NCBI GenBank assembly: GCA_028704885.1
Contig: JAQWEN010000001.1
Coordinates: 523,107-587,106 of the forward strand
DNA: 64,000 nt
Source: Candidatus Shapirobacteria bacterium
GTDB lineage: Bacteria > Patescibacteriota > Microgenomatia > UBA12405
Direction of reading: 5' to 3'
In this document: positions 25,444 to 53,662 of the stretch, piece by piece
Layout of the letters: every line of letters starts with the position of its first letter
How positions within the stretch are numbered: the stretch's first letter is position 1
Program-made: the position numbers and the translations under genes
The notes under the pieces: generated by a model
Databases searched by the model: none
Seen by the model: only the letters and a program-made list of their open reading frames with translations
Told to the model about the DNA's origin: nothing

Positions 25444-26488
25444 GTTGCAAAAGATCTTCGATTGAATTTAGTCGAACTAATTTTGATCTCAATTGTTTGG
25501 CATTGACCAAACCAGAGGCATAAAACAAAAAGTTTTTTCGAAGACTATCAAAACGGCGATTAGGAAAAACTTCCTTAAAAAACTGGGCATGAAGAAGCAT
25601 GGCGGAAAAACGCTCTTTTGGAGTGGCAATATAATCTTTGAAACACCAAGGGTTGCCGCAAGCAGCTCGACCAATTAAAACACCATCGACACCATATTTT
25701 TCACAAAATTCTAAGGCTTGAGATTTAGACTCAATATCACCGTTGCCCAAAATTTTAGTGTTAGTATTTTTGGCTAATTCAACTACATTCTGAATTTCTG
25801 ACCAGTCGGCAGTGCCAGCATAGCCTTGTTTAAGAGTGCGAGCGTGAATAGTTAGAAAATCTAAATCTTGAGCCAATAAAATTGTGGCCCAGGAATCGAT
25901 AATAGATTTATCAATGCCGAGACGAGTCTTAACAGAGATAGTGGGACGAATCCTCTCTGTCCCTTCGGGACATCTCCCTTTAACAAAGGGAGAAATATTT
26001 ATTTCGGAATATTTTTTGTTGCGATTAATTACATTAAGAGTTTTTTGATTAAGACCGAGGTCGGTGATTTTAATTTTATTTTCAAACCAATCATTAATCC
26101 CCTGTTTGGTTTTTTTAATAATTTCAACAGCTAAATCTGGTTTAGAAATTAGAGCAGCGCCGCTACCATTTTGGGTGACGGTTTTGGCGGGACAACCCAT
26201 ATTAATATCAATGCCATCAAAACCTAATTCAGATAAAATAATGGCTGATTTATAGAAACTATCTGGATTTTTGCCAAATAATTGGCCAATAATTGGGTGT
26301 TCTTGATTTGAAAATAAAAGAGTGTCGTACAATTTAACTCCACCATGACTGATGCCTTCGGCACTGACAAATTCAGTAAACATTAAATCCGGCTTGGCGA
26401 TTTGAACTTGGAGTAGACGAAAAGCTTCATCAGTAATTCCATCCATTGGAGAAAGAGCGATGATTGGAAGTTTGTTTATAAAACTCAT
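25421..26488 (-). CDS. dus: tRNA-dihydrouridine synthase (DusB-like)
   Basis: FMN-binding N-terminus (MDGITDEAFR) and catalytic Cys loop (INMGCPAKTV). Carries an in-frame insertion encoded by a palindromic repeat (see the repeat feature). Confidence 0.85.
   Translation of the reverse strand: MSFINKLPIIALSPMDGITDEAFRLLQVQIAKPDLMFTEFVSAEGISHGGVKLYDTLLFSNQEHPIIGQLFGKNPDSFYKSAIILSELGFDGIDINMGCPAKTVTQNGSGAALISKPDLAVEIIKKTKQGINDWFENKIKITDLGLNQKTLNVINRNKKYSEINISPFVKGRCPEGTERIRPTISVKTRLGIDKSIIDSWATILLAQDLDFLTIHARTLKQGYAGTADWSEIQNVVELAKNTNTKILGNGDIESKSQALEFCEKYGVDGVLIGRAACGNPWCFKDYIATPKERFSAMLLHAQFFKEVFPNRRFDSLRKNFLFYASGLVNAKQLRSKLVRLNSIEDLLQLEGDFLS
25943..26000. repeat. Double-hairpin palindromic element, copy A, inserted in frame in dus
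   Basis: gggacgaatcctctctgtcccttcgggacatctccctttaacaaagggagaaatattt. Hairpins GTCCC-TTCG-GGGAC and TCTCCCTTT-AACA-AAGGGAGA. Shares ctctgtcc...ggacatctccc...ggagaaat with copy B at 55030-55080. Confidence 0.65.
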
Positions 26489-27225
26489 TATTTATTTTTT
26501 TTGGATTTGAAGGCAAATTTAGCGCCAACTTTGGAACCAAAATTACGTTGTTTAAAAACAGATGATCTAACATGAAGATCAGAACTAGATTTATATTCTG
26601 GTTTTTGACCTGGCTTTGGTCTAAATTTCTTCTTATTAGGATTTAGATCAGGAAAAAATTTAGGAATATATTCGCCAGTGGTATTTCTATTTAGAGATTT
26701 ACCGACAGAATTGAAAACTGGCTTACCGCCTTTATATTCTCGGGATTTGCTTTTTTCGCCGAAAACCGGAGAATAATTTGATGATGGTCGACTAATAGAT
26801 TGTGGACGAGGTGGATATTGACGATTATCAAGAGATCTTTTTTGGGCTTGATAATCGGAAAGATCACTGTCAGGATGAGGTAAAAATGGCTGAGGTTGAC
26901 GACGATTTGGATGATCTTTTAGAGCTTCTTCATGACGAGCTTGACCTTCGGCGGTTAAAAACGGATCAGCTTCGGCATAATCAACAATTATAGTTCTATC
27001 ACCAATGTAGTAATTATGATATTTGGTTTTAGCACGAATAGCATCGTCAAGATTTTCAAATTCAACAAAGCCGATACCACGACTTTTGCCCCATTGATTG
27101 TGCATGATGCGAACAGAAATAATTTTACCTTCGGCAACAAAAAGGGAAAGTAATTCCCCTTCAGTAAAGCGATAAGGTAAACTGCCGATGAATAGGCGTT
27201 TTGAGACAGGTTTTGGTAATGACAT
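26488..27225 (-). CDS. RRM-type RNA-binding protein with a long disordered basic/Pro-rich C-terminal tail
   Basis: N-terminal RRM with RNP2 (LFIGSL) and RNP1 (KSRGIGFVEF). About 150 aa of low-complexity P/R/S/K-rich tail. Confidence 0.75.
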   Translation of the reverse strand: MSLPKPVSKRLFIGSLPYRFTEGELLSLFVAEGKIISVRIMHNQWGKSRGIGFVEFENLDDAIRAKTKYHNYYIGDRTIIVDYAEADPFLTAEGQARHEEALKDHPNRRQPQPFLPHPDSDLSDYQAQKRSLDNRQYPPRPQSISRPSSNYSPVFGEKSKSREYKGGKPVFNSVGKSLNRNTTGEYIPKFFPDLNPNKKKFRPKPGQKPEYKSSSDLHVRSSVFKQRNFGSKVGAKFAFKSKKNK

Positions 27226-27258: not shown

Positions 27259-27885
27259 ATGCTCAGCTATGAAAAAATATTGATTGGAGAGTTAGAAACT
27301 AACTGTTATTTGATCTGGGAAGAAGAAACAAAAGAATGTTTAGTAATTGATCCGGGTGATGATGGAGTGGGTATTAGTGAAGAAATAAATAATAAAAAAT
27401 TAAAAGTTAAAGCTGTATTTTTAACCCATGGCCATTTTGACCATTCAATGGGAGCATTGGATTTAAAATTAATTTACAATGTTGATTTTGGCTGCAGTGA
27501 AAAAGATGCTTTTCTTTTAGATAGACAAGATGAAACAGCTAAACATTTTTTAAAAAAAGAAATTCAAGTGCCTAATTTTATAAAAATAGATATTGATTTA
27601 GATAAAATAAAAAAATTTGAATTAGGAGAAGAAATAATAGAAATTATTAAAACTCCGGGACACACTCCAGGTAGTGTGTGTTTTTACAATAAAAAGAATA
27701 AATTATTGTTTAGTGGAGATACATTATTTGCCGGACTTAGGGGTAGAACTGATTTTAAATACGGATCAACCAAAGAAATATTTAAGAGTCTTAAAAAATT
27801 GATGAAATTAGACAAGAAAACATTAGTTTTACCAGGACATGGAGATGAAACGACAATCGAGAGAGAATCTAGACGTTACCTCTAA
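27259..27885 (+). CDS. MBL-fold metallo-hydrolase (hydroxyacylglutathione hydrolase-like)
   Basis: HxHxDH metal motif (THGHFDH), downstream Asp/His ligands. 208 aa. Confidence 0.8.
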   Translation: MLSYEKILIGELETNCYLIWEEETKECLVIDPGDDGVGISEEINNKKLKVKAVFLTHGHFDHSMGALDLKLIYNVDFGCSEKDAFLLDRQDETAKHFLKKEIQVPNFIKIDIDLDKIKKFELGEEIIEIIKTPGHTPGSVCFYNKKNKLLFSGDTLFAGLRGRTDFKYGSTKEIFKSLKKLMKLDKKTLVLPGHGDETTIERESRRYL

Positions 27886-28059
27886 GATTATCAATAGTTT
27901 CTTCAAAATTTTTGATGTGATCTTGTTTAATACTTTCCAAAAGCTCAATTAAAAGACCGTTGATGTAAGTTTCAATGGCTTTTGATTGTTCTGGAGTTAA
28001 TTTTAGATCTTGGGTTAGTTGTTCAATGGTTTGCATTAATTAGATTATAACATTTGTCG

Positions 28060-28065
28060 TATAAT
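28060..28065 (+). promoter_or_regulatory. -10 hexamer TATAAT 13 nt upstream of the duplicated tRNA-Gln 5' fragment
   Basis: TATAAT at 28060-28065. Its placement relative to the tRNA-like 5' end matches the tRNA-Glu and tRNA-Pro promoters. Confidence 0.3.
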
Positions 28066-28078
28066 AGGTTGTCTTTAA

Positions 28079-28154
28079 TGCTTCGTCGTTGCCGATTCGA
28101 TTAAAGTCGAATCGAGCATCCTCGATCTGAAGGATCGGGACTAATGGTAGGACA
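28079..28154 (+). pseudogene. Duplicated 5' fragment of tRNA-Gln (nt 1-25) split by a 51-nt hairpin-rich insertion
   Basis: tgcttcgtcgt (identical to tRNA-Gln nt 1-11), then a 51-nt insert with two internal palindromes (cgattcga...tcgaatcg; cctcgatc...gatcggg), then ctaatggtaggaca (identical to tRNA-Gln nt 12-25). Similarity ends after the D-arm. Confidence 0.55.
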
Positions 28155-28158
28155 AAAT

Positions 28159-28401
28159 ATGTATTACACTTATGTTTTAATTTCAGTAAAAGACAATTCT
28201 TATTACATCGGTTCAACTTCTAACATTGAACAAAGATTAAACTATCACAATACTGGAAGATCTAGCTACACAAAATTAAAAATGCCGTGGAATTTGGTAT
28301 ACTTTGAGGAATTTCAAACCCTTTCTTTAGCTAGAAAAAGAGAAACACAAATAAAAGCTTGGAAAAGCAGAAAAGCTATTGAAAGATTGATAAAAAAATA
28401 A
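28159..28401 (+). CDS. GIY-YIG nuclease-domain protein (YhbQ/UPF0213-like)
   Basis: MYYTYVLIS...YYIGSTSNIEQRLNYHN...R is a canonical GIY-YIG/URI domain of about 80 aa. The stop codon directly abuts nt 1 of tRNA-Gln. The listed ORF start at 28144 lies inside the tRNA-derived fragment, so the Met at 28159 is the more likely start. Confidence 0.8.
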   Translation: MYYTYVLISVKDNSYYIGSTSNIEQRLNYHNTGRSSYTKLKMPWNLVYFEEFQTLSLARKRETQIKAWKSRKAIERLIKK

Positions 28402-28472
28402 TGCTTCGTCGTCTAATGGTAGGACAGTCGGCTCTGAACCGACTAATTGTGGTTCGAATCCATACGAAGCAA
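28402..28472 (+). tRNA. tRNA-Gln (anticodon CUG)
   Basis: Hand-folded. U1-A72 acceptor (TGCTTCG/CGAAGCA), D-arm GTCT-AATGGTA-GGAC, anticodon stem GTCGG/CCGAC with loop CTCTGAA, T-arm TGTGG-TTCGAAT-CCATA, discriminator A. Confidence 0.85.
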
Positions 28473-28473
28473 C

Positions 28474-29044
28474 AAATATTGGTCGTAAAAAATAGTTTAT
28501 ACGGTAAATTTTGAAAATTACAGTCAAATAAAAAAAGGGCTTAACGTTGGTTTGTTGGTGGGTCGACAGAATGTCACCGCAAAACACGTATAAGCCCTTT
28601 ACTAGGAATGAAATGAGTTTGTGGGGTGGATAATCTGTTTATCATTAACGAGGTATTTAAAATAAAAACTGTTAATGATAACTGAATAAATTGGATTCAT
28701 TGACGGAGAGTGTTAAACGACTAAGTACAGATGCACATCTGTTTGTCGTAACACTACTTTGTCTTTCCCTCTGGAAGAGGAAAATTACCGAATAGGTATA
28801 TTCAGTTTTTTGGCCACGTCCGAGCTTTGGTTTCTCCGCAAAAGAGAAGAAAGTTTGGTTTTAACGGCCCTCCTTTCATAAATGAAAAGAATGAAAATAC
28901 CAGACAACTGAATCAACAATTTGGAAACGATGAAACACGCGCCACTTACTATAACATGAAGGTCAAAGAGCAACTGTTTAGAAGATCATCAAGATGATCT
29001 GATGTAATAATATGGCTTTTTAAAAGGAAAGAAAAGGGGGCAAA
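28474..29044. ncRNA. GC-enriched, highly structured 570-nt noncoding region; candidate large ncRNA or mobile-element remnant. Strand unknown
   Basis: No ORF over about 15 codons on either strand. GC is visibly higher than flanking DNA. Multiple perfect hairpins (aagggctta...taagccctt; gtttatcattaac/gttaatgataac; acagatgcacatctgt). Lies between convergent tRNA-Gln and the LCP gene. Confidence 0.3.
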
Positions 29045-30169
29045 TTAATTTAGATTAGAGGAACTAGTGGCAGTTGGTTGAGAAACAAAATTTTTAATAT
29101 CTGTCCAATTATTTTCGCCTATTTTTGGGATTAAAATAAATTGACCATCAAAACTTTTTGTATCAATTAAAAGATTATTATCGGTGATGGGATAGGACTC
29201 GATTTTGTAGCTTTGGTATTCATCAGCCTTACTAATTAATTGTTGCATTTGTTCTAAATTTATATCGGTAGTTAAATTGCCGGCTAAAGAATTTACAAAG
29301 GGAATTAATTTGGAAATAAAGTTTAAAGAAATAATTTTTTTCTTGAGAGCCTCGATGACTAATTTTTGACGGGCAGAACGATTGAAATCTCCTCCATCTT
29401 CTGGAGAATGACGGGAGCGAACAAATTTTAGAGCCGTAAGGCTATCCAGGTGTTGTAAGCCTTTGTCAAAATGAAGATTTTCATAGCGACAAGTAAACTG
29501 TTCTTCAAGTTTAGAAGCTGACATGGTGGCGGTTAAAGCAGCTATTTCTTCATCGGTTTTACCACAAGGATCATTTATATTTTCTTCAATTGGGTAAAGT
29601 GGATCATTAAAAGTTTTTTGAACATTAACATCAATGCCGCCAAGGGTATCAACTGTTTTTAAAAAACCATTAAAATTAATAGTGGCAAAATTATCAATAG
29701 AAAAACCCAAAACTTGAGACAAGACGGTTTTTGACATTTGACCACCACCAGCAAGACCAGTAAATTGAATTTCTTTATTTGGATAACGTTTATCATCAAG
29801 ACCAATAGTATAAGCCGCATTAATTTTTGACATTTTAGTAATACCGATAGCAACGGGAATTGGAATCCATAAATCACGAGGAATGGAAATTAATTTAATT
29901 TTTTTTTCGAGAGGAATAAATTGAGCTACTAAAATCGAGTCAGTTAGAGTGCCACCTTCGTGAACGCCACCGCCATAACCCATCAGAGCAATAGCAAATG
30001 GTTTATTAGGATCAGGAGTAGGAGTAACAGTGGGAGTAATTTCTTTAGAAATAGGATTTTTGTTTACTTTAACAACAACTTGGCGGTATTTTATAAAAGC
30101 AAAAATAGCAAAAAAAACAGCCACAGACAGGTTGAAAATAATAAAAACTATAAGAATTTTCTTGGCCAT
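29045..30169 (-). CDS. LytR-CpsA-Psr (LCP) family cell-wall polymer transferase
   Basis: N-terminal TM anchor, conserved LCP core (LISIPRDLWIPIP..., RSRHSPEDGGDFNRSARQ). Confidence 0.85.
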   Translation of the reverse strand: MAKKILIVFIIFNLSVAVFFAIFAFIKYRQVVVKVNKNPISKEITPTVTPTPDPNKPFAIALMGYGGGVHEGGTLTDSILVAQFIPLEKKIKLISIPRDLWIPIPVAIGITKMSKINAAYTIGLDDKRYPNKEIQFTGLAGGGQMSKTVLSQVLGFSIDNFATINFNGFLKTVDTLGGIDVNVQKTFNDPLYPIEENINDPCGKTDEEIAALTATMSASKLEEQFTCRYENLHFDKGLQHLDSLTALKFVRSRHSPEDGGDFNRSARQKLVIEALKKKIISLNFISKLIPFVNSLAGNLTTDINLEQMQQLISKADEYQSYKIESYPITDNNLLIDTKSFDGQFILIPKIGENNWTDIKNFVSQPTATSSSNLN

Positions 30170-35386: not shown

Positions 35387-35765
35387 ATTATTAGTATAGA
35401 TGATTTTTTTTGTTTTTCAAAAAACGAATTAAAAGACATATATATACCAAGCATTTATAGAATAATTACTTTTGAAAGTGATAATTTAATTAAAAATTGA
35501 TACATATTATTTATGTATATAGATATTAAACCATTTAAGTATATTTAATGTAATGTATCAACAAATTTTTTGTTTTTAAATATTGTAATATTTTTTATAA
35601 ATGTTAATAATATATGGTAAATAAGGTAATATATTAATTTTTAAAAATTAAATAAAACACTTGACAACTATTCTATAGTTATGGTTTTATCTAATGTTGA
35701 TTAATAATGGATAATAAAAATATTTGACAGAATTTGATCAATTTTATTAATTAATTAGAAAATAA
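35387..35765. promoter_or_regulatory. 380-bp extremely AT-rich intergenic region upstream of the tasA-like/sipW operon; contains TTGACA-type -35 candidates
   Basis: Longest AT-only intergenic stretch in the window. TTGACA occurs at about 35659 and 35724. No convincing -10 pairing was resolved. Confidence 0.3.
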
Positions 35766-52948: not shown

Positions 52949-53000
52949 CGATTACTAATTGTAGCAAAACAATATGCTATACTGGCGATAGAAACACATA

Positions 53001-53108
53001 ATGAACGAAAATAAATATATTAAAAAAGATTTATTAAGAAGTTTGATTTTAAGCGTGATTTCAATTGGGATTATCATAGTTATTTACTACCTAAAAAATG
53101 GTTATTAG
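53001..53108 (+). CDS. Candidate 35-aa single-TM micropeptide (not in the ORF track)
   Basis: ATG...TAG encoding MNENKYIKKDLLRSLILSVISIGIIIVIYYLKNGY. Weak RBS. Sits in an otherwise empty intergenic region. Confidence 0.2.
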   Translation: MNENKYIKKDLLRSLILSVISIGIIIVIYYLKNGY

Positions 53109-53141
53109 AAATTATTATTTTTATAAGGGGGGTGAAAATTA

Positions 53142-53318
53142 ATGCCAACAATTAAATTTTATAACGTTAAATCACGCAAATCTATCGAAATTGACGTAAG
53201 TAAAGTAGAAAAAGTTATGTTGAAAAACGGTAGACCAGCAGCTCAAACTATTGATCCAGAAACTGGAACCAAAATGTTTAAAATCTTATCAGCCGCTGAT
53301 GCAGCTTTATTGAAATAA
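53142..53318 (+). CDS. 58-aa small basic protein resembling archaeal Sul7d/Cren7 SH3-fold chromatin proteins (not in the ORF track)
   Basis: Strong SD (AAGGGGGGTG) 8 nt upstream of the ATG. Followed by a perfect rho-independent terminator. Sequence MPTIKFYNVKSRKSIEIDVSKVEKVMLKNGRPAAQTIDPETGTKMFKILSAADAALLK aligns by eye with Sso7d ([24 protein letters not shown]...) and Cren7 (...DPETGKYFRHKL). Confidence 0.5.
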   Translation: MPTIKFYNVKSRKSIEIDVSKVEKVMLKNGRPAAQTIDPETGTKMFKILSAADAALLK

Positions 53319-53340
53319 TAAAGAAATAGATTTAAGCTTA

Positions 53341-53376
53341 AACCCCCCGAAATTTCGGGGGGTATTTGTTTTTATA
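53341..53376 (+). terminator. Rho-independent terminator
   Basis: CCCCCCGAAATTTCGGGGGG perfect GC-rich hairpin followed by TATTTGTTTTT. Confidence 0.85.
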
Positions 53377-53394
53377 GATATTTAAGGCTATAAT
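53366..53394 (+). promoter_or_regulatory. Promoter candidate for RNase P RNA
   Basis: TTGTTT (53366-53371), 17-nt spacer, TATAAT (53389-53394). Lies 4-7 nt upstream of the P1 5' end. Confidence 0.4.
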
Positions 53395-53397
53395 TTA

Positions 53398-53662
53398 GAT
53401 ATCCTAAAGAGATTGAGAGGCTTATCCCGATTTCTAACGAAATCGCGGAAGGAAAGTCCGGACCACAAAAAGCACAGAAGTCCATACGGACCAGGGCGTA
53501 AGCTTTGGGCGCTGCTACAGAGACGAGAAATGTGAAACGCGCATCCTTCTGGTGGAAATCTCAAGATGAAACGTTAATATCTAGCTTTTGAGAGTTTCAG
53601 GTAGAGAGAGTAGATTGATGGCCTCTAAACAGAATCCGGCTTATCAATGTCTTTGGGATATT
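53398..53662 (+). ncRNA. rnpB: RNase P RNA (rnpB), unusually short (~265 nt)
   Basis: Universally conserved P4 halves GGAAAGTCCGGAC (5') and ACAGAATCCGGCTTA (3'). P1 pairing between atatcctaaagagattga (53399-53416) and tcaatgtctttgggatat (53645-53662). Internal GTGAAAC-type P11/P12 junction. Confidence 0.75.

Follow-up and report, generated by a model that had tools for sequence, protein, structure and literature searches.

The best-known RNAs that resemble the subject of this report in their genomic position are, as we take it, the small RNAs (sRNAs) that derive from a 3' untranslated region (UTR) or share the terminator of an mRNA, such as CpxQ, SroC and DapZ of the enterobacteria. In architecture, the closest comparison is with large structured RNAs such as OLE, GOLLD, ROOL, raiA and HEARO. 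Here, we deal with a candidate RNA element of ~520 nt that lies directly behind the stop codon of an LCP (LytR-CpsA-Psr) gene within a 64-kb stretch of DNA, referred to as the window, from a metagenome-assembled genome of Candidatus Shapirobacteria, a lineage of the Candidate Phyla Radiation (CPR, or Patescibacteria). Like the 3'-UTR-derived sRNAs, the element is found directly after a stop codon and in the same orientation as the gene, it ends at the only intrinsic terminator of the operon, and it has a possible internal promoter just after the stop codon. Unlike them, it is ~430-520 nt in length as against ~60-100 nt, making it about 5-8 times longer, it has a long-range closing helix and at least six hairpins, it is known from sequence alone, and it belongs to a CPR host without obvious Hfq-type biology. 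With OLE, GOLLD, ROOL, raiA and HEARO the element shares a size of several hundred nt, many stems and long-range pairing, as well as conserved boxes located between variable hairpins and a patchy distribution. It differs from these RNAs in that it fits none of their covariance models, has no association with prophages or tRNAs, and is so far confined to one subclade of the Shapirobacteria, where it accompanies the 3' end of the LCP gene. Finally, the segment 28525-28600 of the element is, like an intrinsic terminator, a GC-rich hairpin followed by a U-tract, and it is retained in a natural deletion derivative; unlike a plain terminator, this segment represents only ~75 of ~520 nt and its hairpin is unusually long.

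The element occupies most of the gap 28474-29044, which at 571 nt is the longest in the window (45 gaps, median 30 nt) and which lies, as the original prediction had stated, between tRNA-Gln on the plus strand and the LCP gene on the minus strand. That prediction had taken the entire gap for one large structured noncoding RNA (ncRNA). The interval consists instead of two parts, the relic of an ABC exporter gene near the tRNA and a structured element on the LCP side. The idea of a structured RNA is upheld by conservation and compensatory changes in relatives, and ~65 nt of the proposed coordinates belong to the pseudogene. Overall, a lineage-restricted structured RNA of ~520 nt after the LCP gene, together with the ABC relic, is in our judgment a rather probable reading of these sequences. 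The features of the element, from its 5' to its 3' end, are as follows.

28525-29044, minus strand: whole candidate RNA element, from the LCP stop to the end of the terminator U-tract, 520 nt
29032-29041, minus strand: C-rich box GCCCCCUUUU (family consensus GACCCCUUUU), directly after the LCP stop, near-invariant in all members
29007-29012, minus strand: -10-like hexamer TATTAT, within the conserved block AAAAG.(A/C)ATAT(T/C)ATTA
28983-29000, minus strand: hairpin H0 (AGAUCAU-CUUG-AUGAUCU), in the same place in all members
28929-28957, minus strand: 5' strand of the long-range helix P1, pairing with 28608-28635 in the minimum free energy (MFE) fold
28869-28877, minus strand: Shine-Dalgarno (SD)-like box GAAAGGAGG, at the junction of hairpins H2 and H3
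28812-28870, minus strand: long hairpin H3, starting in the GG of the SD-like box
28795-28806, minus strand: conserved tract ACUGAAUAUACC, 16/16 nt the same as in locus L012, with related tracts in L019 and L022
28764-28784, minus strand: H4-like hairpin UUUUCCUCU-UCC-AGAGGGAAA, 19 nt, 89% identity to L012
28702-28763, 28683-28699 and 28639-28681, minus strand: three window-lineage hairpins of the MFE fold, with no alignable counterpart in other subgroups
28608-28635, minus strand: P1 3' strand with the conserved C-rich tract AUCCACCCC (28623-28631), of which AUCCACC is kept across members
28525-28600, minus strand: intrinsic terminator, GC-rich hairpin 28534-28600 followed by the U-tract UUUUUUUAUUU

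Relatives of this locus, numbered with the prefix L, were found via homologues of the LCP protein, scans with which provided four loci on genome contigs and five on metagenome contigs; most members of the family were obtained by exact-protein look-ups. Collinear homologues of the element follow the LCP stop codon in L003/4, L007, L011, L012, L014, L016, L019-21, L022-24 and L008. They are 380-450 nt in length and represent ~9 distinct Candidatus Shapirobacteria sequences besides the window. A spacer of 430-455 nt separates the LCP stop from the stop of an ABC exporter gene in L003/L004, L007, L011, L012, L019-21 and L022-24, the spacer is present without the ABC gene in L008 and L014, and the ABC gene abuts the LCP gene without any spacer in L002, L005/6 and L013. 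The spacer of L016, whose LCP is 92% identical to that of the window, agrees with the window's at 90% over the 288 nt that are left before the L016 contig ends. When element and gene are compared, the identities between the window and L016 are 91% for the element, 89.5% for LCP and 82% for third codon positions; between L003 and L007, the corresponding values are 85% for the element, 77% for the LCP gene and 62% for third codon positions. In these two pairs the element is thus at least as conserved as the LCP gene and far more conserved than third codon positions. An nhmmer profile from which both the window and L016 had been left out returned 29043-28795 on the minus strand as its top match (E=1.5e-7), a result that required the --max option, since the window copy was missed with default filters. 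There is one copy per locus, and neither blastn nor nhmmer detected a second copy in the 64-kb window or in ~170 kb of related loci.

The subgroups have little sequence identity and the interiors of the element diverge fast between them, yet the same boxes are found in the same order. On the LCP strand these are UUUGACCCCUUUU, AAAAG.AAUAU(C/U)AUUA, GUUCUUU, (A)AGAGAGUGGUGGUG, GAAAGGAGG, AAAACUGAAUAUACC, AUCCACC, CACCACCACUYUCUU, and a GC-rich terminal hairpin followed by U's. The second of these, the -10-like block, is constant while the adjacent hairpin H0 is wholly changed in the window. Its hexamer resembles the TAnAAT boxes that are located just upstream of start codons in the host genome, and a scan for consensus sigma-70 promoters did not flag the site at 29007-29012. 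The TATTAT box is a possible promoter of the element's own.

Independent MFE folds of nine members follow one shared plan. From 5' to 3', this consists of H0, the 5' strand of P1, a small hairpin that ends in the GAAAGG of the SD-like box, H3 starting from the GG of that box, H4, H5 and hairpins particular to a lineage, the 3' strand of P1, and the terminal hairpin. Every member has P1, which encloses ~250-330 nt. The sequence of H0 differs among members (AUAUUAC/GUAAUAU in most), with 4/7 pairs changed on both sides, and a long hairpin equivalent to H3 but of different sequence follows the SD-like box in L003/7/11, L019, L022 and L012. In the other members H4 covaries, with UUCUC/GAGAA in some and UGAUC/GAUCA in others around a common AAUGC loop, where the homology of the H4 register between subgroups is our own assignment; H5 varies from GGUGA/UCAUC to GGUAA/UUACC. 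For P1, the arms of four relatives are as follows.

L007: 5' arm AAGAGAGUGGUGGUG, 3' arm CACCACCACUUUCUU
L022: 5' arm AGAAAAGCGGUGGUG, 3' arm CGCCACCUUUUUUCU
L014: 5' arm AAGAGUUUU, 3' arm AAAACUCUU
L008: 5' arm AAGAGAGGUU, 3' arm AACCUCUCUU

When every 5' arm is paired with every 3' arm, each arm of the divergent L022, L014 and L008 finds its strongest partner in the other arm of the same member, by row as well as by column, and the mean energy is -19.4 kcal/mol for own pairs and -13.5 kcal/mol for cross pairs. The helices were also considered in a curated alignment, made by hand as plain MAFFT does not align the window correctly with the other subgroups, in which 92.5% of cells pair and 22/34 pairs are changed on both sides. 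None of 500 shuffles matches these values, and slid registers pair in 39-57% of cells. An uncurated MAFFT/RNAalifold alignment of L003, L007 and L011 has variable positions in 10.5% of paired as opposed to 38.9% of unpaired columns (Fisher p=1.5e-12). The general hallmark of a structured RNA, a conserved secondary structure with compensatory changes, is therefore found in the aligned sequences, so that the comparison with relatives, which the original prediction had proposed as a check, did return predicted compensatory changes, in P1, H0, H4 and H5.

A number of observations weigh against a functional RNA, or at least against too confident a reading of its conservation. Hand-chosen registers bias the curated alignment towards pairing, and the family, with ~9 distinct sequences from one narrow clade, is too small for an R-scape-type test. 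Among L003, L007 and L011, single-sided changes break 12 pairs, compared to nine one-sided changes and one both-sided change that keep them. The window has the least stable P1 among the members (-10.1 kcal/mol, two A.A mismatches), and its copy of the element could be decaying. Although dinucleotide shuffling of the interval gives z-scores of -3.65 (plus strand) and -4.01 (minus strand), the interval stands no higher than the top 3-5% against the window's own background once MFE is corrected by regression for G and C content (z -1.6 to -1.9). Thermodynamic stability is therefore weak evidence alone, and the case rests on the relatives. The LCP genes of L007 and L011 share 99% nucleotide identity and their elements only 91%, a contrast that points to recombination or mosaic evolution of the spacer only, and not to purifying selection in a simple form. 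On the LCP tree, the element is present through one clade, from L014 to the window, and is absent from L013 (the sister of L003), L005, L002/L018 and L009/L025, as well as from the distant L026, L027, L010 and L015. The simplest reading is of one gain and at least four losses in the clade; these losses, and the absence of the element from the distant relatives, mean that it is dispensable. One of these losses has left the natural deletion derivative in L025 (4117-4240), which corresponds to an L014-type element (L014:4039-4418) and keeps the first ~35 nt, the P1 3' arm and the terminator hairpin, without the ~260-nt core.

Much of this would be expected if the interval were a non-functional spacer in a recombination or deletion hot-spot, where only the terminator and a few LCP-side boxes matter and the other hairpins are incidental. 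The hypervariability of the interval, which in one relative or another holds an ABC exporter, a KAP NTPase, a 682-aa open reading frame (ORF), a holin or a GIY-YIG gene, agrees with this explanation, as do the four or more losses, the L025 derivative, the fast divergence of interiors between subgroups, the modest rank of the fold energy, and the single-sided changes among the three closest relatives, of which about as many break pairs as keep them. It does not account for ordered boxes and helices that persist where the interiors of the subgroups no longer align, for the pairing that P1, H0, H4 and H5 keep despite changes on both sides, for paired columns that are some four times less variable than unpaired ones, or for an element that equals or exceeds LCP in conservation in two pairs. 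Nor does it account for base composition: the GC content of the interval is 35.4%, compared to 24.2% in the pooled other intergenic DNA and 32.9% in genes, and the elevated GC of the original prediction therefore holds relative to spacers (+11 points) and only marginally relative to genes. We regard the spacer explanation as unlikely, and return to the structured element and the question of its strand.

All nine full-length members end in a GC-rich terminal hairpin followed by a U-rich tail, and do so on the minus strand only. The hairpin is 67 nt long with a conserved sequence (GGGCUGGCGCC...CGCCAGYCC in most members), and was missed by a simple terminator scan because its stem and loop exceed the limits of the scan. 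No other terminator is found between the LCP stop and this distal hairpin, and L025, which is without the core, keeps the hairpin directly after LCP. The polarity of the U-tract and the arrangement in L025 together argue that the distal hairpin is the terminator of the LCP operon, and hence that transcription of the minus strand would include the element, if only as a 3' UTR. The position of a terminator-sharing RNA, on the same strand as LCP, downstream of it and with a predicted terminator in common, is seen in all members. Both hairpins quoted in the original prediction exist, AAAGGGCTTA/TAAGCCCTTT at 28534-28543/28591-28600 and the perfect 11-bp helix TTATCATTAAC/GTTAATGATAA at 28639-28649/28671-28681, the latter within the window-lineage hairpin 28639-28681. 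The former had been described as a closing helix; it is the base of the terminal hairpin that precedes the minus-strand U-tract, and the region is not closed by it.

It is also conceivable that the functional RNA is made from the plus strand, as the 3' UTR of the ABC mRNA or as an antisense RNA with an anti-SD-like CCUCCUUUC box. The G-rich plus strand gives the more stable fold in 8/9 members and in the consensus (-100.6 compared to -86.1 kcal/mol, with 129 compared to 105 pairs), which counts against the minus strand, and the ABC gene usually ends at the element and is read towards it. The energy advantage is gone after correction for composition, and since the corrected z-scores are similar we set it aside as an effect of G content. 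No hairpin with a U-tract is found on the plus strand at either end, and the element is kept without the ABC gene in the window, L014 and L008 and missing with it in L002, L005 and L013. Moreover, the covarying helices contain 12 G.U pairs on the minus strand, which would be A.C mismatches on the plus strand, against two in the converse situation (one mis-registered row excluded; several of the G.U pairs share a column, so that independent events are fewer). A plus-strand RNA thus seems quite unlikely, and the functional strand is probably, though not with certainty, the minus strand.

A distinctive feature of the minus-strand element is its SD-like box, which is the sole AAGGAGG on both strands of the 64 kb. 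Every member has one such box, in the same position and orientation, as compared to a frequency of AAGGAG elsewhere in the loci of 0.29 per kb. The 4-mer SD core precedes just 8 of 64 host genes, and AAGGAGG or AAAGGAG is found at none of these 64 gene starts. In many host genes, a TAnAAT -10-like box instead precedes the ATG by 6-10 nt, and the closeness of these boxes to the start codon suggests that leaderless mRNAs are widespread in the host. Like an SD site, GAAAGGAGG(U) is complementary over 9-10 nt to what we assume to be the relevant 16S rRNA 3' tail, namely the canonical one, which may not be that of the host. Unlike SD sites, the box is found without a start codon or conserved ORF, in a genome whose genes do not use SD sites, and it is predicted to be mostly paired. 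In none of the members is the box followed by an ATG, GTG or TTG at a suitable distance, nor is any reading frame shared among them; an AUA-initiated frame of 11 codons behind the box was considered as a small ORF and rejected, as it occurs in L003/7/11 and is missing from the other members.

The prediction that the SD-like box is mostly base-paired at the H2/H3 junction weakens a role in ribosome binding. With six members, RNAalifold pairs the 5' C-rich box with the SD-like box, an interaction that would form a pseudoknot with P1 and that does not appear in single-sequence ensembles; as both boxes are invariant, this pairing can show no covariation. The SD-like box may be conserved for structure or for pairing with C-rich boxes, and the suggestion that it is kept for contact with the 16S anti-SD tail is speculative.

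The surroundings of the element explain the remainder of the interval, and the relevant features are as follows.

29045-30169, minus strand: LCP gene (Pfam PF03816, E=4e-35), last gene of its operon
28489-28539, plus strand: ABC exporter relic, the last ~17 codons, NSLYGKF*KLQSNKK, with TGG changed to TGA
28402-28473, plus strand: tRNA-Gln (CTG), context, outside the element

The LCP operon has the order GT2/GtrA, NTP-transferase, Zn-ribbon, KsgA, LCP, and is a cell-envelope operon. Relatives share a layout that appears to be ancestral, with an MBL-fold gene, a 55-aa ORF, tRNA-Gln, a variable island and LCP, and in many of them the island contains an intact gene for a 578-aa ABC exporter that is read towards LCP. 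The relic NSLYGKF*KLQSNKK corresponds to NSLYSKFWKLQSSK in the intact proteins. Against the interval, the ABC proteins of L002, L003 and L005 give tblastn E-values of 0.001-0.004 (1.4-kb search), and by blastn the relic is 79-86% identical to the 3' ends of intact ABC genes. The tblastn similarity ends at the final ~17-28 residues. Pseudogene status therefore applies to 28489-28539 and does not extend to 28540-29044, and the first ~65 nt of the gap (28474-28539) lie outside any RNA candidate. Because the ~1.7-kb ABC gene has been deleted in the window lineage, the adjacency of the element to tRNA-Gln and GIY-YIG is an artefact of deletion. The association that the original prediction had drawn with these two genes is incidental, for in relatives the ABC gene or other cargo intervenes, and the position of the element is constant relative to LCP and not to the tRNA.

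The LCP-to-tRNA-Gln interval is hypervariable (L002, L005, L008, L022, L025, L026, L027). Depending on the relative, its cargo is an ABC exporter, a KAP-family NTPase with a 235-aa ORF, a 682-aa ORF, a 174-aa ORF, a phage-type holin, a 684-aa Glug-like protein or GIY-YIG. On the far side of the tRNA, at 28076-28426 of the window, a 28-nt 5' segment of tRNA-Gln (TAATGCTTCGTCGT + CTAATGGTAGGACA) is duplicated upstream of the GIY-YIG ORF (28144/28159-28401), and this upstream copy is interrupted by a 51-nt hairpin (28090-28140). The same flank is joined straight to the intact tRNA in L003 and L007, and therefore a GIY-YIG cassette of ~323 nt would have inserted into the tRNA gene, regenerating the tRNA. 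L008 keeps the tRNA relic and hairpin with no GIY-YIG gene, and the GIY-YIG gene is present in L025.

An island of this kind raises the prospect that the element is a relic of mobile DNA, either a miniature inverted-repeat transposable element (MITE) or insertion sequence (IS) fragment with P1 as its terminal inverted repeats, or an island-integration scar beside the tRNA. Presence and absence are indeed polymorphic at one site, P1 resembles inverted repeats around a variable core, and tRNA genes, one of which here holds the GIY-YIG cassette, are classical sites of integration. The single copy in 64 kb and per locus is not the multi-copy pattern of a MITE or IS, the site is fixed relative to LCP and not to the tRNA, the L025 deletion ignores the boundaries of P1, and P1 tolerates G.U pairs and covaries, unlike a protein-binding repeat. 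A blastn search of 50,697 phage records gave no match, and of 29 loci from motif scans of IMG/VR viral contigs the family profile confirmed none. A mobile origin is accordingly very improbable.

Equally improbable is that the whole 570 nt represent a degraded coding gene or a gene for a small protein. The original prediction had reported no ORF over about 15 codons, which is incorrect: mechanical ORFs of 62 aa on the minus strand and of 56, 40 and 34 aa on the plus strand are present, together with one of 32 aa, and stop-free runs extend to 81 codons. These ORFs, the genuine relic at 28489-28539 and the SD-like box are what a coding explanation can call upon. None of the ORFs is conserved, and the five small ORFs gave no Pfam match at E up to 1. 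The longest open frames shift in strand and position even among near-identical members, the indels between the window and L016 are not multiples of three, and no start codon stands by the SD-like box. The ABC similarity is limited to the end residues, and nine other island proteins gave only noise against the interval (E 0.01 or worse, 1.4-kb search).

The least probable alternative is a diverged member of a known RNA family, be it GOLLD, ROOL, OLE, HEARO, tmRNA, 6S, SRP or a group I/II intron, all of which the original prediction had put forward and which the size, the multi-stem appearance and the nearby tRNA and homing-endonuclease cassette might suggest, since no such model matches the window or six relatives and the sub-threshold matches are weak and inconsistent. 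With all 4227 families of Rfam 15 at gathering thresholds, cmscan found no match in the interval, and its matches in the window are three tRNAs and RNase P RNA, all elsewhere. In E-value mode over 27900-29300, the best non-tRNA match, to rli60, reaches 28.6 bits where the cut-off is 60, and is accompanied by weak miRNA models. The elements of the six relatives gave no match besides one in L012, to a tmRNA fragment at 14.6 bits and on the opposite strand, and ARAGORN detected no tmRNA in the window or seven relatives. The element is thus unrelated to any curated RNA family. A search of the literature on ncRNAs or SD use in Patescibacteria lineages found nothing relevant.

Several other features of the window may be mentioned here. 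The RNase P RNA at 53408-53652 (plus strand) best fits the archaeal model RF00373 (102 bits, 245 nt) in what is a bacterial (CPR) host, and directly upstream of it is an unassigned gap of 459 nt (52949-53407, GC 28%). The third longest gap of the window, 35387-35765, spans 379 nt and has a GC content of 14.8%. Closer to the element, a 55-aa ORF at 27869-28036 (minus strand) has no Pfam match and overlaps the 3' end of the MBL-fold gene; tRNA-Gln adjoins this ORF in all relatives, where it is kept, with 100% identity in L003. The gene at 26488-27225 (minus strand) encodes a 245-aa protein with a eukaryote-type RRM_1 motif (E=3e-18) and is syntenic at this locus in relatives. This protein is conceivable as an RNA-binding partner of the element.

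The element, then, has a constant position, a conserved architecture, compensatory changes, no coding signal, a single copy and a history of repeated loss; from these sequence comparisons we infer its transcription, its strand and its function. It would form the 3' end of the LCP operon transcript on the minus strand, ended by the distal terminator, and its own -10-like box at 29007-29012 could in addition give rise to an RNA of ~475 nt beginning at H0. The RNA would fold into a 5' hairpin, a multi-hairpin domain closed by P1, and the terminator, with GAAAGGAGG held at a helix junction and the C-rich tracts (GACCCCUUUU, AUCCACC) conserved as sequence. Such a molecule, stable and derived from a 3' end, might have a regulatory or structural role that it exerts by way of its conserved boxes, whether single-stranded or at the junction, with the 16S rRNA anti-SD tail or an RNA-binding protein as possible partners. 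We offer this mechanism tentatively, as one that is more apt to be wrong than right. A far bolder suggestion, and a decidedly improbable one, is that the element represents a new Shapirobacteria class of RNA, of ~400-500 nt, in which the SD mimic GAAAGGAGGU engages an otherwise idle 16S anti-SD tail and so modulates the 30S subunit. The mimic would perhaps be unmasked from the C-rich boxes, and 30S subunits would be sequestered or modulated. If this were true, ribosome availability would be linked to the expression of a cell-envelope operon among whose genes is that of the 16S methyltransferase KsgA.

The genomes of the CPR, or Patescibacteria, are tiny and tightly packed, and their ncRNA biology beyond the universal RNAs is almost undescribed. 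Should the element prove to be merely a long structured 3' UTR, it would be a modest addition to the catalogue, and the association with tRNA and GIY-YIG would still be an artefact of deletion. If it is real, a multi-helix RNA of ~450 nt would be among the few lineage-specific structured RNAs in these bacteria, one that carries the sole strong SD-like sequence in a region otherwise without SD sites, and for which the repeated losses and the L025 deletion derivative provide natural comparisons for function.

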